Assembly: GCA_963786625.1 (NCBI GenBank) | Contig: CAWAZS010000002.1 | Coordinates: forward strand, 12,201-76,200 | Source of the DNA: an uncultured beta proteobacterium | GTDB taxonomy: Bacteria > Pseudomonadota > Gammaproteobacteria > Burkholderiales > Casimicrobiaceae | Direction of reading: 5' to 3' | Length of the DNA stretch: 64,000 nt | Shown: piece after piece, positions 49,196-62,712 of the stretch | How the letters are laid out: every line of letters begins with the position of its first letter | Position numbering within the stretch: position 1 is the stretch's first letter | Program-made: the position numbers and the translations under genes | Notes under the pieces: model-generated | The model's input: only the letters and a program-made list of their open reading frames with translations | Told to the model about the DNA's origin: nothing | Databases searched by the model: none

Positions 49196-49599
49196 CCTCC
49201 AAAGATCATGATTTCGCAAAGAAAATAGTCACCCTTCTCGATCAGGGGACGGCCGAGCTCAAGCCCGGGACCGCCTATCGCCTGCAGCTTGCCCGGCAGG
49301 AAGCGCTGGCGCGGCTCGCCGACCCCAAGCGCGCGGCCGATCTGCAGCTGGCCGGCGCGCATGCGTTCAGCGGGTCGGGAACCTCCGGTGGCGATCGCCG
49401 CTTCTGGGCGAGCGGCCGCCTCTGGGTGGGGATCGCGTTGATCGCCGCAGCCGGTTTCGGCTATGAACAGTGGGTGGCCCATCAGCAGCTCAAGGAGCTG
49501 GAGGAAACGGACATCGCGATCCTCTCTTCGGACCTGCCGATCGATGCCTATTTGGACCGGGGATTCCAGAATTGGCTGAATCACGCGGTGGACGAATAA
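49192..49599 (+). CDS. DUF3619-family protein (probable membrane anti-sigma partner)
   Basis: 135 aa, translationally coupled to the ECF sigma gene, with one TM (LWVGIALIAAAGFGY). The family assignment is from memory of the conserved Burkholderiales sigma/DUF3619/DUF3106/RDD module. Confidence 0.7.
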   Translation: MTSKDHDFAKKIVTLLDQGTAELKPGTAYRLQLARQEALARLADPKRAADLQLAGAHAFSGSGTSGGDRRFWASGRLWVGIALIAAAGFGYEQWVAHQQLKELEETDIAILSSDLPIDAYLDRGFQNWLNHAVDE

Positions 49600-49613
49600 C
49601 CTGCCGTCTCGCG

Positions 49614-50318
49614 TTGGCGTTTGCACTTTCGGCCGGGCTGGTCGCGAGCGCGCTTGCGCAGCCGATCGGGATCGGTTCGCCGTCCTGGGCCGAGCTGCCG
49701 GCCGCCGAACGGCAGTTCCTCGCGCCGCTCGCCCCCGAGTGGGACAGGATGGACGCCCAGCGCAAGCAGAAGTGGCGGGGCATCGCGCAGCGGTATCCGC
49801 ATATGCGCCCCGACGAGCAGCAACGCGTGCGGCAGCAGATGTCGACGTGGGCGCAGCTGTCGCCCGAGCAGCGGCAAGCCGCCCGCGAGCGGTACAAGAC
49901 CTTGAAGACGCTTCCGCCGGAAAAGAAGCAGGAAGTCCGGCAAAAGTGGGAGCAGTACCAGACGCTGCCCCCCGAAACCAGGCGCGAGCTCGCCACGAAG
50001 CCGCCGCCACCGGGAGCCAAGCCGGCGTCCCCGCCGGGAGTCCAGCCGGCTCCCGTACTGTCTCCGCCCCCGCGGCTGGTGCCGGGGGGGCCTCCGCCGC
50101 CCCCGGGCGCACCCCCGCCCCAGCTTGCGCCGGGCGGCGCAACGCTCCCGCTGGGGACACCGCCGCCGCGGCTCGTGCCAAGCGGACCGCCGCCACCCCC
50201 GGGCACGCCACCGCCGCGGCTCGTGCCAAGCGGACCGCCGCCACCCCCGGGCACGCCACCGCTGCAACCCGCGCCAGGCGGCGTATTGCCACCCTCGGGC
50301 GCCAACGCCACCAAGTGA
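49614..50318 (+). CDS. DUF3106-domain periplasmic protein with Pro-rich repetitive C-terminus
   Basis: It has a signal-like LALAFALSAGLVASALAQP, then W..L...E...L.P....W......QK.KW repeats (WAELPAAERQFLAPLAPEWDRMDAQRKQKWRGIAQRY, EQQRVRQQMSTWAQLSPEQRQAARERYK, EKKQEVRQKWEQYQ). The start is uncertain: TTG 49614 is chosen, and the open frame begins at 49470. Confidence 0.65.
   Translation: MAFALSAGLVASALAQPIGIGSPSWAELPAAERQFLAPLAPEWDRMDAQRKQKWRGIAQRYPHMRPDEQQRVRQQMSTWAQLSPEQRQAARERYKTLKTLPPEKKQEVRQKWEQYQTLPPETRRELATKPPPPGAKPASPPGVQPAPVLSPPPRLVPGGPPPPPGAPPPQLAPGGATLPLGTPPPRLVPSGPPPPPGTPPPRLVPSGPPPPPGTPPLQPAPGGVLPPSGANATK
50157..50270 (+). repeat. 48-bp tandem repeat, about 2.4 copies (encodes TPPPRLVPSGPPPPPG)
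   Basis: The units at 50157-50204 and 50205-50252 differ at 2 positions, and a partial third unit follows. It lies inside the DUF3106 gene. Confidence 0.85.
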
Positions 50319-53432: not shown

Positions 53433-54507
53433 TCAGTCCCCCGAACGCGCCCCGCTGCGGTACGCCGCTCCGTAGCGAACATAGATTTCCGCCGCCTGCG
53501 CGAACAGCTCGCGCTCCTGGGGCTTCACCTCGCGGAACGCGCATGCGGGGCGGCCCGCCCAGATCCACCCCTTCGCGACCACGGTGCCGGGCTCGACCAG
53601 GGCGCGCGCGCCGATGCAGCCGCCCTCCTCGACGATGACGCCGTCGCCGACCTGCGATCCCATCCCGATCAATGCGTGGTCCCCGACGATCGCCGCGCCC
53701 ATGCGCACGTTGTGACCGACCGTCACGTCGGCGCCGATGACGAGCGGACCCCGCGCCGCATCGGTCACGAGCAGCGAGTTGTCCTGAATGTTGGTGCGCG
53801 GGCCGATCTCGACACGTGCGCCGCCGGCGACGACGACGCACCCGAAATAGACGCTCGCGTCGTCGGCCACCGCGACGTCGCCGACGAGCGCCGCAGTCGG
53901 CGCAATGTAGGCGCGACCCACCCGCGGGCGCGTCCGCGCCGCGCCCCGCGCGCTCGTCCCCGCCCGTCGGCAGGAGCGCTGCCGCGTCGAGCGGCGGCAG
54001 GTCGCCGGACGTCACCAGCGACGACTTGCTGCGATTCCGGATGGCGTACGCCGCGGCCGCGAGATCCTCCGCCCCGACCTCGCGGACCGGCGTCGCCGGG
54101 TTGCCTTCGTAGACCCACCCGCCGGCAAGCCGCTTGCGCGGCGGCACGAGGCTGCCCGCGGTGATCACGGCCCCGGCGCCGACGTGCGCACCGTCCATGA
54201 CGACGGCCGTGTCGCCAACGACGACCCGATCCTCGACCGTGCACGCATGGACCAGCGCAAATCGTCCGACGGTGACGTCGTTGCCGACGATCGCCGGCAG
54301 CGTGCTGTCGGCGATATGCACGGTCGCCCGCTCGCCGAAGTAGACGTTGGCGCCGATCCGCACCCAGTCGCCATCGGCGCGCAGCATCGCATGGTCGCGC
54401 AGCACCAGGCCGGGACCGGCGACGGTGCGGCCGACGATCGCCGCGGTCGGCGCACAATCCATCGGCGCGGCGACCGACGGCACGAAGTCGAGATAGCGGA
54501 TGAGCAT
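53433..54507 (-). pseudogene. Tandem gamma-carbonic-anhydrase-like / LbH (PaaY/CaiE/YrdA family) protein: two hexapeptide-repeat domains joined across a +1 frame change near 53940
   Basis: Domain 1 is the N-terminus of ORF 53074..54507 (MLIRYLDFVPSV...IGANVYFGERATVHIADS...VGNDVTVGRFALVHACTVED...). It has no in-frame stop. Domain 2 is ORF 53433..53921 ((V)GRAYIAPTAALVGDVAV...IGPRTNIQDNSLLV...IGADVTVGHNVRMGAAIVGD...). It has a GTG start, no SD, and an open frame extending upstream through TRPRVG. It is either a single roughly 355-aa protein or two genes. Confidence 0.7.
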
Positions 54508-54577: not shown

Positions 54578-57256
54578 TTAGAAGACGGGCCTCTCGCGGT
54601 ACGTACCCCACAGTTCCCTCAGGCGTTCGACGATGTCGCCCATCGATGCACCGGCCGCGACCAGCTCGATCGTCACCGGCAGGATATTCTCGCGCTCGTC
54701 CGCGGCCACGGCAGCGAGCCGGTCGAGCAGCGCACGCACTTTCGCGTCGTCGCGCTCGCGGCGCACGCGGTGCAGACGCGCAATCTGCCGTTCCGCGGTG
54801 GTCGGATCGTAGGGGTGGATCTCGACGTCGAGCTGTTCGTCCGGCTCGACGTACCGGTTGACGCCGATCACCGGCTTCTCGCCGCTCGCCTTCCGCTTGG
54901 CAGTCTCGTAGGCGAAGTCCGCTATCCGCTGCTGGAACCAGCCGTCCTCGATCAGCTTGACGGTTCCGCCGCGGCGCTCGACCTCGTCCATTATCCGGAA
55001 GATGTCGCGCTCGAAGCGGGTCGTGAGGCTCTCGACGAGATACGAGCCGCCGAGCGGATCGGCGACGCCGGCGACACCGCTTTCGTCGGCGATGATCTGC
55101 TGCGTGCGCAGCGCGATCTTCATCGCCTCCTCGGTCGGAATCGCAAACGCCTCGTCCATTCCGTTCGTGTGCAGGCTCTGCGCGCCGCCCAGAACCGCGG
55201 CGAGCGCCTGGAGCCCCGTGCGCACGATGTTGATCTTCGGCTGCGGCTTGGTGAGCGACGCCGCCGCGGTCTGGCAGTGGAAGCGCAGCCGCATCGACTC
55301 GGGGTTCTTCGCACCGAAGCGCTCGCGCATGATCTTCGCGTAGACGCGCCGCACCGCGCGGAACTTCGCGATCTCCTCGAAGAAGTCGGCCTGGCAGACG
55401 TAGTAGAACGCGAGCCGCGGCGCGAACTCGTCGACCTGCATCCCCGTCTTCGTCACCTCGTCGACGTAGGTGACGAGGTTGCACATCGTGAACGCGGCCT
55501 CGTCCAGCGGCGATGCGCCCGCCTCGGAGATGTGATAGCCCGAGATGTTGATCGGGTTGTACCGCTTCATGTTCCGCGCGCAGTAGGTGATGCAGTCGCG
55601 GACGATGCGCACCGACGGGGCGATCGGAAAGATCCACTCCTTCTGCGCCTGGTACTCCTTCAGGATGTCCGCCTGGATCGTGCCCGAGAGCCGGTCGAGG
55701 TCGTAGCCGCGCTTGCGCGCCAGCGCGACGTACATCGCGAGCAGGATCCATGCGGTGGGATTGATCGTCATCGACACCGAGATGCGCTCGAGGTCGATGC
55801 CGTCGAACAGATGCTCGACGTCGGCGAGGGTGTCGATCGCCACGCCTTCGCGACCCACTTCGCCTTCGCAGAGCGGGTGGTCGCTGTCGTAGCCCATCAG
55901 CGTCGGCATGTCGAAGTCGGTCGACAGCCCCGTCTGGCCCTGGGCGATCAGGTACTTGAAGCGCCCGTTGGTGTCCTCGGCGGTGCCGAAGCCCGCGATC
56001 TGCCGCATCGTCCACAGCCGCCCGCGATACATCGTCGGGTAAGGACCGCGGGTGTACGGATACTGGCCGGGCAGGCCGATGTCCGAGTACGGCGTGTCGC
56101 CGACATCGAGCGGCGTGTAGACGCGCTTCAGCGGCAGACCGCCCAGCGTGCGGAATTCCGGCAGCCGCTCCGGCTGGCGCGCAAGGAAGGATGCGACCTC
56201 GTTGCGCTCCCAGGCCTCGAGTTGCGCCGCGAGCGCGGCCCGGGCCGCGTCCCCTGCGGCGTGGTCGTCGCTTCCGCGGTCGCTCATGCGTCCTCCCTTC
56301 GGTATGCCGGCGAGCAGGCGCTTCGCCGCCGCGTGCGGACCGATCGCGCGCGCATCGACCTCGGCGAGCAGGCGGGCGACGCGGCCGTCGCGCTGCTGCG
56401 ACAGCACGTCGCGCAGAATCTCTTCGCCGGCCATGAGGAGCCGGCGCTGGTTGATGGCGGTGCGCCGCGCGCTCATGGCGTCGCCGGCGTCGAGCGCATT
56501 GCGGTGGGCATCGATCGCCGCGCGCAGCTCGGCGACGCCCGCGCCGGAAAGCGCGCAGGTCGGCACGACCGGCACCAGCCAATCGCCGCTGCGCGCCGAC
56601 GCCGGTCCCATCGCCAGCATGGACTTGAGGTCGGTGATCGTCTTGTCGGCGTCGGGTCGGTCGGACTTCCCCACGACATGGATGTCGGCGATCTCGAGAA
56701 TCCCGGCCTTGATCGCCTGGATGTCGTCGCCGAGCCCCGGCGCGGAGACGACCACCGTCGTGTGCGCGGCGCGCACGATCTCGACCTCGTCCTGCCCCAC
56801 GCCGACCGTCTCGATGACGACGACGTCGTAGCCCGCCGCATCGAGAATGTCCACGGCGTCCAGCGTGCCGCGCGCGAGTCCGCCGAGCGCGCCGCGGGTG
56901 GCCATGCTCCGGACGTAGACGCCGGGGTCGCCGGCCACATCGCCCATACGGATGCGGTCGCCGAGAATCGCGCCGCCGGAAAACGGGGACGAAGGGTCGA
57001 TCGCGACGATGCCGATGCGGCGCTCGGTGCGCCGGATCTCCGCAGCGAGCCTTGCGACCAGCGTCGACTTGCCGCTGCCCGGCACGCCCGTGATCCCGAC
57101 GACGTGCGCGCGGCCCGCGTGCCGGAAGATCGCCTCCAGCGCCGGCCGGCACTCCTCGTCGCCGGCCTCGGCGCGGGAGAGCAGCCGCGCGATCGCGCGA
57201 ATCTCGCCGGCCAGCACGCCGGGAACGAGCTCGAGCGAGGGCACTGACGGCTTCAC
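54578..57256 (-). CDS. MeaB/ArgK-type G-protein chaperone fused in frame to an acyl-CoA mutase large (substrate-binding) subunit; HcmA-like signature
   Basis: 892-aa ORF. Residues 1-323 form a complete MeaB (GITGVPGSGKSTLV, DPSSPFSGGAILGDRIRM, VIETVGVGQ, GKSD). Residues 324-892 form a complete mutase TIM-barrel subunit (YPYTRGPYPTMYRGRLWTMRQIAGFGTAEDTN...GQTGLSTDFDMPTLMGYDSDHP...) with no B12 domain. The GTG start overlaps the ligase stop (GTGA). Confidence 0.88.
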   Translation of the reverse strand: MKPSVPSLELVPGVLAGEIRAIARLLSRAEAGDEECRPALEAIFRHAGRAHVVGITGVPGSGKSTLVARLAAEIRRTERRIGIVAIDPSSPFSGGAILGDRIRMGDVAGDPGVYVRSMATRGALGGLARGTLDAVDILDAAGYDVVVIETVGVGQDEVEIVRAAHTTVVVSAPGLGDDIQAIKAGILEIADIHVVGKSDRPDADKTITDLKSMLAMGPASARSGDWLVPVVPTCALSGAGVAELRAAIDAHRNALDAGDAMSARRTAINQRRLLMAGEEILRDVLSQQRDGRVARLLAEVDARAIGPHAAAKRLLAGIPKGGRMSDRGSDDHAAGDAARAALAAQLEAWERNEVASFLARQPERLPEFRTLGGLPLKRVYTPLDVGDTPYSDIGLPGQYPYTRGPYPTMYRGRLWTMRQIAGFGTAEDTNGRFKYLIAQGQTGLSTDFDMPTLMGYDSDHPLCEGEVGREGVAIDTLADVEHLFDGIDLERISVSMTINPTAWILLAMYVALARKRGYDLDRLSGTIQADILKEYQAQKEWIFPIAPSVRIVRDCITYCARNMKRYNPINISGYHISEAGASPLDEAAFTMCNLVTYVDEVTKTGMQVDEFAPRLAFYYVCQADFFEEIAKFRAVRRVYAKIMRERFGAKNPESMRLRFHCQTAAASLTKPQPKINIVRTGLQALAAVLGGAQSLHTNGMDEAFAIPTEEAMKIALRTQQIIADESGVAGVADPLGGSYLVESLTTRFERDIFRIMDEVERRGGTVKLIEDGWFQQRIADFAYETAKRKASGEKPVIGVNRYVEPDEQLDVEIHPYDPTTAERQIARLHRVRRERDDAKVRALLDRLAAVAADERENILPVTIELVAAGASMGDIVERLRELWGTYRERPVF
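56285..56299 (-). promoter_or_regulatory. Internal Shine-Dalgarno plus ATG at the MeaB/mutase junction
   Basis: The minus strand reads ccgAAGGGAGGAcgcATGagc. The ATG (56285-56287) is codon 324 of the fused ORF and the first residue of the mutase-like part. A TGA overlaps it in the +1 frame (ATGA). Confidence 0.6.
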
Positions 57257-58683
57257 GCGCCGTCCGCGAGCCGCGCGTTCAGTTCGCGGAACACTTCGCG
57301 GTCGTCGATGACCCGCCGCGCCTTGAAATCGGTCCGCGGGAACGTTCCGGGAGCGACGACTTCGACCCTGGCTCGCAACCCCAGCGTGCGCAGGAGCTTC
57401 CGGGCCGCCTCGTCCGCGAGGGCGCGCACCGCGGAGGGCCCCGCCGCGTGGACGGCCGGCGCCGCCTCCATGCGGACCAGCAACTCGTCCATCGCGCCGT
57501 CACGCGTGATGACGATCCGGTGCTCGCCGCCGTAGCCGGACAGCTCGTTGACTGCGGCATCGACCTCGCTCGGATAGACGTTCTCGCCGCGGATCGTGAA
57601 CATGTCGTCGATGCGGCCGAAGATGCCCTTCGGCAGCCGGGGGTACGTGCGCCCGCAGGGCGCGGGGCCGTCCTCCCATTGCGTGAGATCTCCCGAAACG
57701 AGCCGGATCATCGGCTGCGACGTGCGCTCGAGGTGCGTGTACACGGGCGTGCCGCGGCTCCCGAACGGCACGCGCCGGTAGGTCGCGGGATCGCAGACCT
57801 CGGTGTACACGACGTCCTGCCACAGCAGCATGCCGTCGGTCTCGGCGGTCCCGGCGAGGTTCATGAACGGCGTCATCTCCGCCATCGATCCGCAGTCGAT
57901 CACGCGCGCGCCGAACGCAGCGACGATCTTGTCGCGCACACCGGGCACCGAGGCGCCGGGCTCGCCGGAGAAGAACATCGTCTTCAGGCCGAAGGCCCGT
58001 GGATCGAAACCTTCGGCGCGCGCGACTTCCGCCAGATGCAGCGCGAACGACGGCGTCGAGTAGAACGCCGACGGCTTCATCAGGTCGAGCCACATCGCCG
58101 CGCGCGCGGTCATTCCCGGCGCGCCGGCCCCGAACGGAAACGCCTTGGCGCGCAGGCGCTCGACACCGGCGAGCGTGCCCCACGAGCCCATGTAGAGGCT
58201 GAAGATCGCCGCGATGAACACGGTGTCGCCCGGCCGCAGGCCCATGCCCCAGAGAATTCGCGCGTGCGCATTGGCGATCGCGTCCCAGTCGCCGCGGCCA
58301 ACCGCGAAGACCGTGGGCCGGCCCGTCGTGCCGGACGTGCCGTGTATGTGGTGGACCTCGCCGCCGGGAACGCAAAGGTAATCGCCGAACGGCGGCACCC
58401 GTGCCTGCGCCTCGCGCAAGTCACGCTTGGTGATGACCGGAACCTTCGCCTCGAAATCCTCGAGCGTGCGCAAGTGGTCGGGATGGAATCCGGCCTCGTC
58501 CCACTTCCGGCGATAGAAGGGCGCATGGTCCCATGCATAGCGCGCGAGCACCTGCAGCCGCTCGAGAATCGCGCGCTCGCGGCTCGCCGGCGGCATCGTC
58601 TCGCGCCGCGGGTACCAGTGGCGCGACGTTGCGGGCGGCAGGTAGTCGGCGTCGAAACGCGGCGGAAAGGTCCACGATTCCAT
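57253..58683 (-). CDS. PaaK-type AMP-forming acyl-CoA ligase (phenylacetate-CoA ligase / 2-hydroxyisobutyrate-CoA ligase family)
   Basis: Intact 476 aa: ...VHHIHGTSGTTGRPTVF (AMP-binding P-loop-like motif), FFSGEPG, MFTIRGENVYPSEVD, typical of the short PaaK/F390-synthetase branch. A GGAGG SD is present. Confidence 0.85.
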   Translation of the reverse strand: MESWTFPPRFDADYLPPATSRHWYPRRETMPPASRERAILERLQVLARYAWDHAPFYRRKWDEAGFHPDHLRTLEDFEAKVPVITKRDLREAQARVPPFGDYLCVPGGEVHHIHGTSGTTGRPTVFAVGRGDWDAIANAHARILWGMGLRPGDTVFIAAIFSLYMGSWGTLAGVERLRAKAFPFGAGAPGMTARAAMWLDLMKPSAFYSTPSFALHLAEVARAEGFDPRAFGLKTMFFSGEPGASVPGVRDKIVAAFGARVIDCGSMAEMTPFMNLAGTAETDGMLLWQDVVYTEVCDPATYRRVPFGSRGTPVYTHLERTSQPMIRLVSGDLTQWEDGPAPCGRTYPRLPKGIFGRIDDMFTIRGENVYPSEVDAAVNELSGYGGEHRIVITRDGAMDELLVRMEAAPAVHAAGPSAVRALADEAARKLLRTLGLRARVEVVAPGTFPRTDFKARRVIDDREVFRELNARLADGA

Positions 58684-58696
58684 GCAGCCGCCTCCG

Positions 58697-59113
58697 TCAC
58701 CGCGGTCCGCGCTCGGCGACGACGCGGCGGACGGCGGTGACGATCGCCTCGGGGGGCGCGTCCTGCAGGATCAGCGCCTTGACGCCCAGCGCCGTCAGCG
58801 TCGACACGTCGTCGTCCGGGATCACGCCGCCGCCGACGACGAGGATATCGTCGGCACCGCGCTCGGCAAGCAGCTTCAGCACGCGCGGAAACACCGTCAT
58901 GTGCGCGCCGGAGAGGATGCTGATCCCGATCACGTCGACGTCCTCCTGGATCGCGGCGTCGACGACCTCCTGCGGCGTGCGATGCAGCCCGGTGTAGATG
59001 ACGTCCATGCCGGCGTCGCGCAGCGTCCGCGCGACGATCTTGACGCCGCGGTCGTGACCATCCAGCCCGACCTTGGCCACCAATATGCGGATGTGATCGT
59101 GTGCGGGGCTCAC
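58697..59113 (-). CDS. Cobalamin (B12)-binding small subunit of acyl-CoA mutase
   Basis: (V)SPAHDHIRILVAKVGLDGHDRGVKIVARTLRDAGMDVIYTGLHRTPQEVVDAAIQEDVDVIGISILSGAH carries DxHxxG and SxL motifs. GTG 59113 is preceded by GGAAAGGAAGGA. It is 138 aa, and ORF 58697..59302 extends upstream without similarity. Confidence 0.88.
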   Translation of the reverse strand: MSPAHDHIRILVAKVGLDGHDRGVKIVARTLRDAGMDVIYTGLHRTPQEVVDAAIQEDVDVIGISILSGAHMTVFPRVLKLLAERGADDILVVGGGVIPDDDVSTLTALGVKALILQDAPPEAIVTAVRRVVAERGPR

Positions 59114-59313
59114 GCCGTCCTTCCTTTCCGATGCCGGGGATTCCCCTCGCAGAATCCCGGGATGGCGGATCTGCCGGTTCCGATGATAGCGCCTGGACCG
59201 GCCCCCCGCGGGCCCCGGCGGGCCAGCGAATCCGGCGGTGGCCCTGCCCGTGCGAATCCGAATGACCTCGCGAAGGCGTCTAAGATGCGATTGTTCCCGC
59301 ATCCGGAGGCCCC

Positions 59314-60105
59314 ATGCCGCGCGTCGTCCCGGTCCTGTTGATCCTGCTGGCGGTCGCGCTCGCCGCCGGCCTCGCCTGGGTCTTTCTCGTCTGGTCGTTC
59401 CCCGGCGCCCGCGGCGAAGTCGCGACGGAGCAGCGCGCGCTCGCGCCCTTCACGCGCATCGCCATCGAAGGCCTCGTCGATGCGACGCTGGTCCAGGGCG
59501 CCACCGAATCGGTGACCGTCGAGGCCCCGTCGAGGCAGCTGCCGCGCGTGCGCACCGAGGTGGTCGACGGGACCCTCGCGATCGGCGGCGGCGCGTCGCG
59601 GCGCTGGTGGTCCGAGCTCCTCGGCGGCAGCGCGCGCCCCGCCCGCGTGACGATCACCTATCGCGAGCTCGACGGAATCAGCGCCGCGGGCGCCGTCAAA
59701 GTCCAGGCCGGGCGCCTCAAGACCGATCGGCTTCGGGTGTCCGCCTCCGGAGCGACATCGCTGAAGATCGCCGACCTCGACACGAAGCTGCTTTCGCTCA
59801 CCGGCTCGGGCGCGATGAAGGCGGAGGTCGCGGGCCGGGCCACCGAACAGCGGGTGGCGATCTCCGGGGCCGGCGATTACCGCGCGGCGGATCTCGTCAG
59901 CGAAGATGCCCGCGTGGCGGTCAGCGGCGCCGGAAACGTCGTCGTCCGCGTGGAGAAGACCTTGAGAGTCGGCATCACCGGCGCCGGAAGCGTCGAGTAC
60001 CTCGGCGACCCGACGGTCACGCAGCAGATCAGCGGCGCCGGGCGCGTCAGGCGTCGCGAGGCCGCGGCCGAAAGGCTGGAGATCGCGTCGCTGTTCGCGG
60101 GGTAG
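59314..60105 (+). CDS. DUF2807-domain (putative adhesin head, GIN-type) membrane-anchored protein
   Basis: It has an N-terminal TM (VVPVLLILLAVALAAGLAWVFLV) and repeated beta-solenoid-like units (SASGATSLKI, LTGSGAMKAEV, ISGAGDYRA, VSGAGNVVV, ITGAGSVEY, ISGAGRV). Confidence 0.65.
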   Translation: MPRVVPVLLILLAVALAAGLAWVFLVWSFPGARGEVATEQRALAPFTRIAIEGLVDATLVQGATESVTVEAPSRQLPRVRTEVVDGTLAIGGGASRRWWSELLGGSARPARVTITYRELDGISAAGAVKVQAGRLKTDRLRVSASGATSLKIADLDTKLLSLTGSGAMKAEVAGRATEQRVAISGAGDYRAADLVSEDARVAVSGAGNVVVRVEKTLRVGITGAGSVEYLGDPTVTQQISGAGRVRRREAAAERLEIASLFAG

Positions 60106-60129
60106 CCACCGTTCCTCCCCGACCGCCGC

Positions 60130-60513
60130 CTAGGGCGAAGGGTGTCCGTCCCGGTCCGCCTCCCCGCCCTCCGGGCCATAGAAGAAGACCCAGACGAGGA
60201 CGTCGTCGCTGAAGTCCTCGAAGCGGTGCACGGCACCGGCCCTGACGAACAGCACGTCGTTCGCCGCGAACGGATGGCGATGTCCATCGTTGACGAACCA
60301 GCCGCTGCCGCGTGCGACGACGTACGCCTCGTCGCGCGTGTGCGGCTGCTGAAGGTCGCTGCCGCGCGGGGCATAGAGCTTGACCTGCAGCGTTCCGTGC
60401 TCGAACACCGCCGCCGAGCGCTTGCCCTCCGGCGTGGGCAGCATCGCCGCGGCCTCCGCGAGCGTGATCCGCCCGCGTTCGGCGGATGCGTGGTTTGCCG
60501 TGAGTTTGCGCAT
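60130..60513 (-). CDS. Cupin-domain protein
   Basis: 127 aa from the in-frame ATG 60513 of ORF 60130..61425. It carries HTRDEAYVVARGSGWFVNDGHRHPFAANDVLFVRAGAVHRFE (cupin_2 motifs). The ATG overlaps the upstream stop (ATGA). Confidence 0.7.
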   Translation of the reverse strand: MRKLTANHASAERGRITLAEAAAMLPTPEGKRSAAVFEHGTLQVKLYAPRGSDLQQPHTRDEAYVVARGSGWFVNDGHRHPFAANDVLFVRAGAVHRFEDFSDDVLVWVFFYGPEGGEADRDGHPSP

Positions 60514-61688
60514 CAGTGCAGGACGACCGCTGTGGCGTCGGGGATCGTATCGGGCTTGAACAGCAGCGGCAACCCCGTTCCCGGGGCGCGGTCCGCGTGT
60601 ACGCCTCCCAGCACGCGGATGTCCGTCACCCGGCAATCGCGCAGCAGCTCGACGAGCATCGCCGCCACGTCGCCCGCCCGGTCGAGCGGGTAGAGCGGGC
60701 AGCGGAAACCTTCGGCGGCGCGCGGATCGAGCGGCGACGACAGCGAGAGCCGCAACTCGCCGCCGCCCGGCGCTTCGGACGCCCGATGCGCGCTGATGAC
60801 CGCCGTGGGCTCGCCGACACTGCCGCGGAACTTGCGGATCGCGTTGCTGGCGAAGATCTGCGCGGACACCTCGCGCTGCGCGGCCAGGCCCTGGGCAACG
60901 GCAGGAAGCAGCCGCTGCGGCGCGCGTGGCAGCGCGAGTGCGGAAACCGGCCCGGCGGCGAGCTGCCGCGCCAGTTCGCGCGTGAACGGCGCACCCCATT
61001 TGCCGACTCCCGTCTCGGCGAGCAGGTCCGCGCCGGGCTTCGCGATCGCTGTGCCGACGAGGAAGCGAAGGTGCACGGTCTCGCGCGCCGCATGCACGGC
61101 GATGGGCACCGGGGCAAGGGATTGGGCGGGTAGCGATGCTCCCGGCGCGAGGGAGTCCGGCAGCCTTGTCCACTCCCGGATTTCCGGCAGGCGTGCGACA
61201 TCGATCGCCTCGATGCCGACGAGGGCATTCGCGAGCGCAATCGTCCGGTTGCCCGCGAGGGCTCCGCCTTCGACGAGTATCGTCGCAAGCCTTCGGGGAT
61301 CGTCGAGGCACCCGGACAGCGTGGCGTCGCCCTCCGCGATCTCGAGGCCGGTGACCACGACGAGCGGCAGCGCGAACAAGGTGACCGCGAGGCCGGCGCC
61401 TTCGGCCGCCTCCGCCTCCCGCCACGCGGCATCGAGCATGCGCCAGAGATGCCGCGCAATCGCAACCGACGGCGCACCGGACAAGTCCGCGGCAAGCGAG
61501 GGGCCGTCCCCGGCAAGTCGCGCGGCGAGCAACCGGCGCAGATCCCGGTCGATCGCGTCGGAACGTTGCCCGGTCTCCGCCACGAGGCTCGCGTCGGCCA
61601 TGGCGTACAGCTGGCGTGCCCCGACCGGCGCAGCTGCCACGTCCGGGAACGTGCGGGGGTCGGCGACCGGGTGTGCGGTTTCAGGCAT
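60513..61688 (-). CDS. Hypothetical protein, 391 aa (function unknown)
   Basis: The in-frame ATG at 61688 in ORF 60513..62117 starts MPETAHPVADPRTFPDV.... It is soluble and Ala/Leu-rich, with no motif I can name, and might be a betaproteobacterial DUF. It is translationally coupled to the cupin gene. Confidence 0.5.
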   Translation of the reverse strand: MPETAHPVADPRTFPDVAAAPVGARQLYAMADASLVAETGQRSDAIDRDLRRLLAARLAGDGPSLAADLSGAPSVAIARHLWRMLDAAWREAEAAEGAGLAVTLFALPLVVVTGLEIAEGDATLSGCLDDPRRLATILVEGGALAGNRTIALANALVGIEAIDVARLPEIREWTRLPDSLAPGASLPAQSLAPVPIAVHAARETVHLRFLVGTAIAKPGADLLAETGVGKWGAPFTRELARQLAAGPVSALALPRAPQRLLPAVAQGLAAQREVSAQIFASNAIRKFRGSVGEPTAVISAHRASEAPGGGELRLSLSSPLDPRAAEGFRCPLYPLDRAGDVAAMLVELLRDCRVTDIRVLGGVHADRAPGTGLPLLFKPDTIPDATAVVLH

Positions 61689-61845
61689 CGCAGATCGTTC
61701 GGGCAACGGGGGTGGGCTCGCCGGCGGCGACCGCTGCTCCCCTAACGGGCCGTTGTCGCCCGGGCAATTCTCGCACGCGGGCCGAGGGTTCCCGTCGCGG
61801 CGATCCGGAGCGAACACGCCGCCGACGCCGGAATCCGTCCGGGGC

Positions 61846-62577
61846 CTAGAGGCAGAACGGCCCGTGGGCCAGCGAGCCCGTGGCGAAGAGCGCGCGCCAG
61901 AGCCCCACGACGGCAAATCCGGCGATGAGCACGGCCGCGGCCAGACGGACGGCCTTGGCGTCGAGCCAACGGCCGGCACGGGAGACCAGCCAGCCGGTCG
62001 CCAGCAGATTGGGCAACGTACCGACACCGAACGCGAGCATGACCGCCGCGCCCTGCCAAGCCCCACCCGCAAATACGGCGATGGGCAACACGCTGTAAGT
62101 GAGCGCACACGGCACAAGCCCCCAGATCATGCCCAGCGCAAAGCGTGCCGCGGTCGAATCGGCCTGGAGCAACGGGCGCACGGCGGGAAGCGCCTTGGCG
62201 AACAAAGCGTTGCCCGCGCCTTGCAGCCAGGCCAGCCCGGCGCGCTTCCAGGCGATTGCAGCGGCCAGCCCGAGCAGGAACAGGTTGGCAACCACGAAAA
62301 CGGTGCGCTGCAGCGGCAGCCAGTCCGCCGCCGCAAGCAGGGTGCCGCCAGCACCGCCCGCGGCCGCCCCGAGCAGCGCGTAGGTCGTGATCCGCCCGGC
62401 GTTGTACGAAAGCTGGCGCCAGGCGAGCGTGCTTGCCGGGAGCAGCGGCGCCGCCGGCGCCCCGGCCGAATTCGCCCCGCCTGCCATCGCTGTCACGAAA
62501 CCCCCGCACATCGCGAGGCAATGCGCGCCGCCGAGGATTCCGGCGAGCAGCGCGCCGATCAATGCGGACAGGGCCAC
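61846..62577 (-). CDS. DsbD_2 / TauE-SafE-like membrane protein with GGxHCxxMCGG motif
   Basis: (V)ALSALIGALLAGILGGAHCLAMCGGFVTAM... It has about 6 TM segments and 243 aa. Members of this family often accompany cbb3-oxidase maturation and fnr loci. Confidence 0.7.
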   Translation of the reverse strand: MALSALIGALLAGILGGAHCLAMCGGFVTAMAGGANSAGAPAAPLLPASTLAWRQLSYNAGRITTYALLGAAAGGAGGTLLAAADWLPLQRTVFVVANLFLLGLAAAIAWKRAGLAWLQGAGNALFAKALPAVRPLLQADSTAARFALGMIWGLVPCALTYSVLPIAVFAGGAWQGAAVMLAFGVGTLPNLLATGWLVSRAGRWLDAKAVRLAAAVLIAGFAVVGLWRALFATGSLAHGPFCL

Positions 62578-62712
62578 GGTCGTTGACCTGCGACAACATG
62601 TCGCGCATGCGTCGAATCGCCGGCGAGCGCCCGGCGCCTCGCGATCGCGCCGCGCCCGGCGCCCACGCGGAGTCCTGTTCTTTTCGCGGTTTTCCCGTTA
62701 AAGTGACGAAGT

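Follow-up and report, generated by a model that had tools for sequence, protein, structure and literature searches.

A chromosomal hcm-type operon in an uncultured betaproteobacterium and the probable one-base origin of its apparent chaperone-mutase fusion

A B12-dependent acyl-CoA mutase operon set among the housekeeping genes of an uncultured betaproteobacterium raises two questions, namely whether it belongs to the type described as hcm in Aquincola tertiaricarbonis L108 and Methylibium petroleiphilum PM1, and whether its G-protein chaperone is truly fused to its mutase. The operon lies on the minus strand in a 64,000-nt stretch of contig CAWAZS010000002.1 (GenBank assembly GCA_963786625.1, positions 12,201 to 76,200), referred to here as the window; all coordinates are those of the window unless another locus is named. 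A first-pass annotation had drawn it as three open reading frames (ORFs) of 138, 476 and 892 aa, and their coordinates, the 13-nt gap and GTGA overlap between them, and the motifs GLDGHDRG (138-aa protein), TMRQIAGFG and GLSTDFDMPT (both in the mutase barrel) were all confirmed (Table 1). The locus very probably represents, in an orthologous copy on the chromosome, the known hcm operon for the catabolism of 2-hydroxyisobutyrate (2-HIBA), and its 892-aa ORF results from one extra G.

Identity of the mutase, the ligase and the B12 subunit

Scores against proteins of known structure were obtained from all PDB sequences and identities from BLASTP, and families were assigned with Pfam and with NCBIfam, the latter with its equivalog cut-offs. 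The best PDB match of the barrel is HcmA, the large subunit of 2-hydroxyisobutyryl-CoA mutase (HCM) of A. tertiaricarbonis (4r3u_A, 4.9e-292, 975 bits), with 446 bits (3e-132) for human methylmalonyl-CoA mutase (MCM; MMUT) and 370 bits (2e-109) for IcmF. Identity with HcmA (PDB 4R3U) is 75.4% over 553 aa. The small subunit matches HcmB best (4r3u_C, 6.8e-56; 65.6% identity over 131 aa) and is a separate B12 protein with the DxHxxG motif (GLDGHDRG), as in the HcmAB system. The G-domain passes the NCBIfam MeaB model TIGR00750 with 307 bits against a cut-off of 240.75. NCBIfam holds no HCM-specific model, and the generic domain model TIGR00641 matches the mutase.

For the ligase, the best PDB match is the 2-hydroxyisobutyrate-CoA ligase (HCL) of A. 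tertiaricarbonis (6hdw_A, 2.9e-248) at 827 bits, versus 232 bits (1e-67) for true PaaK, and identity with HCL is 71.7% over 473 aa. It has the fold and the domain pair of PaaK. Tyr and Ser at HCL positions 164 and 239, to which Zahn is said to have assigned a functional role in 2019, are both kept in the window ligase.

Residues Ile420, Asp447 and Gln538 of the 892-aa ORF align without gaps to positions 101, 128 and 219 of the 4r3u_A SEQRES, which become HcmA positions 90, 117 and 208 after subtraction of an 11-residue tag, giving a window triad of Ile/Asp/Gln (I/D/Q). The placement of Ile and Asp at the equivalents of MCM Tyr89 and Ala116, as proposed in the first-pass annotation, stands in this alignment. 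The aligned positions reproduce the numbers in Ile90/Asp117, which we take to be the HcmA numbering. Kurteva-Yaneva and colleagues reportedly described the pair in 2015 as determining both specificity and stereochemistry; a literature text search for Ile90/Asp117 returned nothing relevant.

The three positions were read in 85 mutase genes from 84 loci fetched by homology (numbered with the prefix L). Genes with I/D/Q (28) each share 65% identity or more with the window barrel and, where flanks could be recovered, all adjoin an hcl homolog except the gene of L019. Genes with Y/A/R (37) are of the MCM type, and those with F/A/Q (17) are of the isobutyryl-CoA mutase (ICM) type; I/D/Q separates cleanly from both across the 85 genes. 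V/D/Q is displayed by three genes, about 48-59% identical to the window barrel. In a neighbour-joining tree the window and L082-L085 are nested in a betaproteobacterial I/D/Q clade with PM1 HcmA and 4R3U, well apart from the Y/A/R and F/A/Q clades. Thus neither another residue at the Tyr89 and Ala116 equivalents nor a placement inside the MCM or ICM clades was found.

The V/D/Q sister mutases (L026, L027 and L028; Table 1) include copies on Sinorhizobium and Shinella plasmids. Those of Mesorhizobium, Peristeroidobacter and Sinorhizobium share with the window barrel the Asp and the Gln of the two polar positions but, unlike it, have no hcl beside the gene.

That the genes encode a methylmalonyl-, isobutyryl-, ethylmalonyl- or pivalyl-CoA mutase together with a phenylacetate-CoA ligase is almost certainly wrong. 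Generic pipelines do label proteins of this sort as 'methylmalonyl-CoA mutase family' or 'AMP-binding protein', and the match to TIGR00641 is of the same generic kind. Against this, the barrel scores 568 bits on the NCBIfam MCM model NF006944 (cut-off 876) and 465 bits on the IcmF model (cut-off 1500), the ligase scores 256.6 bits on the PaaK model TIGR02155 (cut-off 646.3) with HCL a far better PDB match, the barrel prefers HcmA to MCM by 975 bits to 446, and the triad is neither Y/A/R nor F/A/Q and falls in a separate clade. MCM was also rejected on the Ile and Gln found at the Tyr89 and Arg207 positions, and ICM on the triad and the tree. IcmF (PDB 4XC6) resembles the 892-aa ORF in carrying a MeaB-type G-domain before the barrel on one polypeptide, and shares with the window barrel the Gln at the Arg207-equivalent position. 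It differs in its N-terminal B12 domain and its Phe/Ala pair, whereas the window has a separate B12 gene and Ile/Asp. RcmAB of Kyrpidia tusciae, likened here to the window enzyme by its description, is also a B12 acyl-CoA mutase and, like HCM, converts 2-hydroxyisobutyryl-CoA (PMC7176365).

With best matches to HcmA, HCL and HcmB, and with triad, tree and gene order in agreement, the reading of the window module as HCM-type with a dedicated PaaK-family ligase in the Methylibium/Aquincola order is supported at the sequence level.

The junction between meaH and hcmA

The 892-aa ORF arises since the frame of the chaperone gene meaH runs without a stop into the ATG of hcmA at 56287 (residue 324), upstream of which a strong Shine-Dalgarno sequence, AAGGGAGGA, is retained. 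The closest relative overall is L087 (MeaH 84%, HcmA 92% and the downstream left-handed beta-helix (LbH) protein 77-80% identical), and there the two are separate genes, the meaH stop overlapping the hcmA start as ATGA in the junction AAGGAGGACGCATGA. Between L087 AAGGAGGACGCATGA and the window AAGGGAGGACGCATGA 15 bases are the same and the window has one extra G, in the run at 56295-56297; the junctions read CCGAAGGGAGGACGCATGAGCG in the window and CGCAAGGAGGACGCATGAGCG in L087. In L087 meaH ends ...CGC AAG GAG GAC GCA TGA (KEDA*), while the window reads ...CCG AAG GGA GGA CGC ATG A. Removal of one G from the window run yields ...KEDA* and the canonical ATGA overlap, as in L087. The range given for meaH in Table 1 accordingly ends with TGA 56284-56286, the stop that is used if one G of 56295-56297 is spurious.

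In all related loci (about 35) meaH and hcmA are separate genes and none is fused in frame. The two lie in different frames in all relatives other than L087 as well. Most of the betaproteobacterial relatives have an ATGA at which the TGA of meaH and the ATG of hcmA overlap, and all of them end meaH at or before the ATG. Separate meaH genes of L083, L084 and L087 encode 323 aa, and the hcmB product is 138 aa in L083 and L084. A metagenome scan with the exact junction flanks gave no match, and one with a degenerate pattern recovered L082 again (as L086) and L087. No clean two-domain MeaB-barrel protein occurs among the 150 best cluster representatives (of 1.8 billion), which include only double-barrel, barrel-B12-MeaB and MCM-like barrel-B12 proteins and one garbled fragment. 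Database MeaB-barrel 'fusions' P0001 and P0002 are without the conserved GPHxAAxRLL tail and were rejected as frameshift read-throughs, and P0003 was rejected for an internal deletion. P0130 (913 aa) and P0139 (887 aa) carry barrel, B12 domain and MeaB fused in an order unlike that of IcmF.

Elsewhere in the window conserved and housekeeping genes are interrupted by a further dozen or more +1 frame breaks (Table 1). Three of them, in ppa and EamA, were resolved against L083 as single inserted bases, all outside homopolymers; the frame switches in ftsH, folP, spoT/relA, leuA, moeA and chrA were read from a hidden Markov segmentation of codon-position GC content and from segment translations. 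The ppa, EamA and LbH genes are intact in close relatives and broken in the window. The breaks cluster in places, at 1-5.5 kb, 9-10 kb and 50.9-56.3 kb, with those at 50.9-54 kb directly adjoining the operon. Since several essential genes would be broken at once, which is incompatible with a living genome, the breaks are taken to be sequence errors. Given these many other +1 breaks and the one-G difference from L087, the 892-aa MeaB::mutase fusion is probably an artefact of a one-base insertion, and we infer the extra G to be an error rather than a mutation. Origins by a 2-nt deletion from the common 11-nt spacer, or by a 13-nt deletion relative to L082, were rejected, as L087 shows one inserted G to be simpler.

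A genuine fusion is unlikely. It would require a lineage-specific G insertion that removed the ATGA overlap, so that the cell makes a 98-kDa MeaH-HcmA protein working with the separate HcmB as a two-piece, IcmF-like HCM; internal initiation at the kept Shine-Dalgarno sequence and ATG may also give free HcmA. Several observations speak for it, and hence against an error at the junction. The ORF is uninterrupted with both domains full length, IcmF (aligning over query 13-888) demonstrates that the order chaperone then barrel is workable, the rest of the 4.5-kb hcmB-hcmA stretch is without a frame error, the a priori chance of an error in the tail of about 24 nt is <1%, and the extra G may be a true mutation of recent date. 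The junction is also unstable in the sublineage, with the L082 stop lying 13 nt upstream and inserts of 60-110 nt in L084 and L087. Set against these are the difference of exactly one inserted base from L087, the same +1 shift at least a dozen times in the window, the absence of an in-frame fusion from the related loci and of the architecture from the top 150 cluster representatives, and the loss of free MeaH that a fusion would entail. If true, the fusion would be a natural intermediate between stand-alone chaperone and mutase and the fully fused IcmF, reached through loss of the ATGA overlap. The one-base artefact is preferred, and the earlier description of a MeaB::mutase protein was judged overstated in view of the extra G, the kept internal start and the unfused relatives.

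The inserts in L087 and L084 (Table 1) separate the stop of meaH from the true start of hcmA, and that of L087 carries the AAGGAGGACGCATGA junction a second time. The boundary of meaH and hcmA seems to be a hotspot at which small rearrangements arise. In this high-GC window single-base insertions make long fused ORFs, and its unusual architectures therefore need read-level confirmation.

Gene order, the chaperone and the fifth gene

On the plasmid of M. petroleiphilum PM1 a GntR regulator is followed by hcmB, hcl, meaB and hcmA (MPE_RS22125-22140), the same order of small subunit, ligase, meaB-like gene and large subunit that the first-pass annotation had given for Methylibium and Aquincola. 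After hcmA come a small ORF, an adenosyltransferase, a thiamine pyrophosphate (TPP) enzyme, a 340-aa protein of the gamma-carbonic-anhydrase (gamma-CA) family, a second adenosyltransferase and a 3-hydroxybutyryl-CoA dehydrogenase. The A. tertiaricarbonis L108 and PM1 operon has the same four proteins in the same order as the window, PM1 MeaB being 55% identical to window MeaH, and has in common with it the Ile/Asp/Gln triad, the separate DxHxxG B12 subunit and the MeaH P-loop; the PM1 cluster also includes the gamma-CA-like tandem LbH gene. They differ in that the PM1 copy is on a catabolic megaplasmid whereas the window copy is chromosomal, beside ppa and ilvIHC, and in that meaH and hcmA of the window form a single ORF, which the one-base error probably explains.

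Genomes of beta-, alpha- and gammaproteobacteria, acidobacteria and actinobacteria also show the order hcmB-hcl-meaH-hcmA. Nearest to the window are five uncultured betaproteobacterial loci, L083, L084 (ENA ERZ25039492), L085, L082 and L087 (JGI metagenomes), with the same five-gene operon and HcmA 90-92% identical, in which meaH and hcmA are separate where the window has a single ORF. About 17 kb of the metagenomic L083, L084 and L085 is collinear with the window, in the order DUF2807, then hcmB, hcl, meaH, hcmA and LbH, then DUF3047, ppa, EamA, RDD and, further on, ECF sigma, ilvI, ilvH, ilvC and psd. This collinearity indicates that the chromosomal position is inherited within the lineage. 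The rest of the window encodes core metabolism, including carAB, greA, ftsH, folP, glmM, spoT, dapB, fur, murJ, argF, argG, leuA, malate synthase, ilvIHC, pssA/psd and fnr, and no oxygenate-degradation genes are found in it.

The housekeeping context without oxygenate genes, noted in the first-pass annotation, is thus real. That it is remarkable does not hold, for it is typical according to the literature and to L083-L085. According to Rohwerder et al. (2020), many strains have hcl in one operon together with meaH and either hcmAB or rcmAB, and most of these strains come from pristine environments and have no link to xenobiotics (PMC7176365). The hcmB-hcl-meaH-hcmA operon has thus been published before from bacteria that are not degraders of fuel oxygenates, and the window copy is not new in this respect.

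The cluster of the window lineage is a minimal version. No GntR regulator, adenosyltransferase, TPP enzyme or 3-hydroxybutyryl-CoA dehydrogenase occurs near the window operon. According to the literature a GntR-family regulator is usually present beside the operon, and a homolog of the PM1 GntR occurs in 13 other I/D/Q loci; none is found in window 59114-62600, in L083 1-7170 or in L084-L085, the divergent neighbour of the window operon being a DUF2807 protein. Rfam detected no riboswitch or other RNA in the window, and promoter and terminator signals in 53.2-59.5 kb did not exceed those expected from shuffled sequence. The TPP-binding enzyme, 59-66% identical to PM1 MPE_RS22155, adjoins the hcm genes in L001-L007, L009, L013, L014 and L081. 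In the majority of the betaproteobacterial loci it is flanked by hcmA and the LbH gene, and it is absent from the window lineage. Actinobacteria are known to have a TPP-dependent 2-hydroxyisobutyryl-CoA lyase (PMC7176365).

The chaperone itself departs from the usual form at the G4 guanine-specificity motif, which in window MeaH is GKSD and not the canonical NKxD. HCM-linked chaperones at all I/D/Q and V/D/Q loci have (S/A/G)KxD, and chaperones beside MCM- or ICM-type mutases in the data set nearly always have NKxD (one has NMAD). This pattern marks (S/A/G)KxD as a lineage signature of HCM-linked MeaH, which may be of interest to researchers on B12 chaperones.

The operon extends further than the three ORFs first drawn. 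Those stand, and a fifth gene downstream of hcmA, overlooked at the time, encodes a tandem LbH protein. In relatives it is a hexapeptide-repeat protein of about 340-360 aa (typically about 355 aa) with two gamma-CA/PaaY/CaiE-like domains. In L082, L083, L084 and L087 the stop of hcmA and the start of this gene overlap. Many loci, the PM1 plasmid among them, have both halves in a single frame immediately or shortly after hcmA, and the gene is likewise found downstream of hcmA in L004-L008, L010-L013, L018 and L019. The window gene changes frame between its halves, by a net +1 shift at about 53927-53973 in the linker of the two domains. Its NCBIfam and Pfam matches (gamma-CA, PaaY, CaiE, Hexapep) are all below equivalog cut-offs and its PDB matches are gamma-CA-like proteins. 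PaaY, CaiE and gamma-CA are LbH proteins that accompany acyl-CoA pathways; the window protein is similar to them but is a tandem of two domains and scores far below the PaaY cut-off. The LbH protein is a conserved accessory of the operon, often translationally coupled to hcmA. By analogy with PaaY beside PaaK it could be an acyl-CoA thioesterase, and the conserved, operon-linked tandem gamma-CA-like gene is of potential interest for the B12-chaperone field.

Apart from the operon, a plus-strand stretch of the window (Table 1) encodes a protein that has a KWEQYQTLPPE-type N-terminal region (DUF3106 in its L085 counterpart) and ends in a proline-rich tandem repeat (GTPPPRLVPSGPPPPPG, two to three times).

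Table 1. Positions of the operon genes, motifs, frame breaks and related features
Feature	Position	Strand	Remarks
hcmB, small cobalamin-binding subunit, 138 aa, GTG start	58697-59113	minus	Pfam B12-binding, 1.9e-26
hcmB DxHxxG motif (D18-G23)	59045-59062	minus	His20, predicted lower ligand
hcmB-hcl gap, 13 nt	58684-58696		
hcl, predicted 2-hydroxyisobutyrate-CoA ligase, 476 aa	57253-58683	minus	PaaK superfamily; Pfam AMP-binding and AMP-binding_C_2
hcl stop/meaH start overlap, 4 nt	57253-57256		GTGA
892-aa ORF, GTG start	54578-57256	minus	Pfam MeaB (residues 21-283) and MM_CoA_mutase (370-884)
meaH, MeaB-family G-protein chaperone	56284-57256	minus	residues 1-323 of the 892-aa ORF; Pfam MeaB, 1.6e-84
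meaH P-loop, GVPGSGKST	57062-57088	minus	
meaH G4 motif, VGKSD	56661-56675		residues 195-199
Junction, AAGGGAGGACGC	56288-56299	minus	directly 5' of hcmA ATG; Shine-Dalgarno sequence and GGG run 56295-56297
hcmA, large substrate-binding TIM-barrel subunit, 569 aa, internal ATG	54578-56287	minus	Pfam MM_CoA_mutase, 1.9e-202
hcmA specificity codon, Ile420	55997-55999	minus	892-aa ORF numbering
hcmA specificity codon, Asp447	55916-55918	minus	892-aa ORF numbering
hcmA specificity codon, Gln538	55643-55645	minus	892-aa ORF numbering
Tandem gamma-CA/PaaY-like LbH gene, fifth operon gene	53433-54507	minus	two frames in the window
LbH gene, L083	L083 11704-12771		
LbH gene, L081 (PM1)	L081 13313-14335		
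Insert between meaH and hcmA, L087	L087 1088-1200		
Insert between meaH and hcmA, L084	L084 9938-10000		
V/D/Q mutase, L026	L026 11011-12636		
V/D/Q mutase, L027	L027 10966-12627		
V/D/Q mutase, L028	L028 3203-4789		
Single inserted base, ppa	52420		T; resolved against L083
Single inserted base, ppa	52145		C; resolved against L083
Single inserted base, EamA	51660		T; resolved against L083
+1 frame switch, ftsH	~9909		
+1 frame switch, folP	~9075		
+1 frame switches, spoT/relA	~5524, ~5378		
+1 frame switch, leuA	~42379		
+1 frame switches, moeA	~1505, ~1601		
+1 frame switch, chrA	~3978		
Stretch with KWEQYQTLPPE-type region and proline-rich repeat	49470-50318	plus	

Predicted pathway and natural setting

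In the proposed pathway HCL would adenylate 2-HIBA with ATP and transfer it to CoA, and HcmAB would convert the resulting 2-hydroxyisobutyryl-CoA to (S)-3-hydroxybutyryl-CoA by an adenosylcobalamin (AdoCbl)-dependent radical 1,2-rearrangement. AdoCbl would be bound His-on through His20 of the separate HcmB, and the retained Asp predicts stereospecificity. MeaH would act as a GTPase chaperone in which GTP gates loading, protection and repair of the cofactor. The (S)-3-hydroxybutyryl-CoA would pass to acetoacetyl-CoA and into beta-oxidation or polyhydroxybutyrate metabolism by enzymes encoded elsewhere, and the LbH protein would be co-transcribed as a fifth, accessory gene. In the organism meaH and hcmA are expected to be two genes with an ATGA stop/start overlap. 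We infer activity, stereospecificity and direction from the sequences, the catabolic direction from the presence of an acid-activating ligase, and assume operon regulation and the downstream steps in the window lineage.

Some points tell against this assignment: enzyme activity is predicted by homology, and the lineage is without a GntR regulator, an adenosyltransferase and a dehydrogenase like those of the PM1 cluster. It is nevertheless very unlikely that these HCM-like enzymes serve another substrate or direction in the organism, such as 2-hydroxy-2-methylbutyrate, side activities on lactyl- or 3-hydroxypropionyl-CoA, or the conversion of 3-hydroxybutyryl-CoA to 2-hydroxyisobutyryl-CoA. In favour of such a reading, HCM enzymes are promiscuous on lactyl- and 3-hydroxypropionyl-CoA (PMC11599936), no 2-HIBA-producing pathway is encoded in the window, the cluster is without the regulator and dehydrogenase of the PM1 version, and natural sources of 2-HIBA are poorly known (PMC7176365). 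The substrate-contacting triad, however, is the same as in the characterised enzyme, the ligase is 72% identical to HCL with positions 164 and 239 kept, and a ligase dedicated to activating an acid indicates that the free acid is taken up and catabolised. Catabolism of 2-HIBA thus stays the favoured function.

The question of where 2-HIBA comes from in nature was already known and is not newly raised by the window locus. The window adds one more example of a chromosomal hcm operon not associated with xenobiotics. Taken with the thousands of homologs in metagenomes, this example supports the view, already published, of 2-HIBA turnover as a common trait in nature and not an adaptation to fuel oxygenates.

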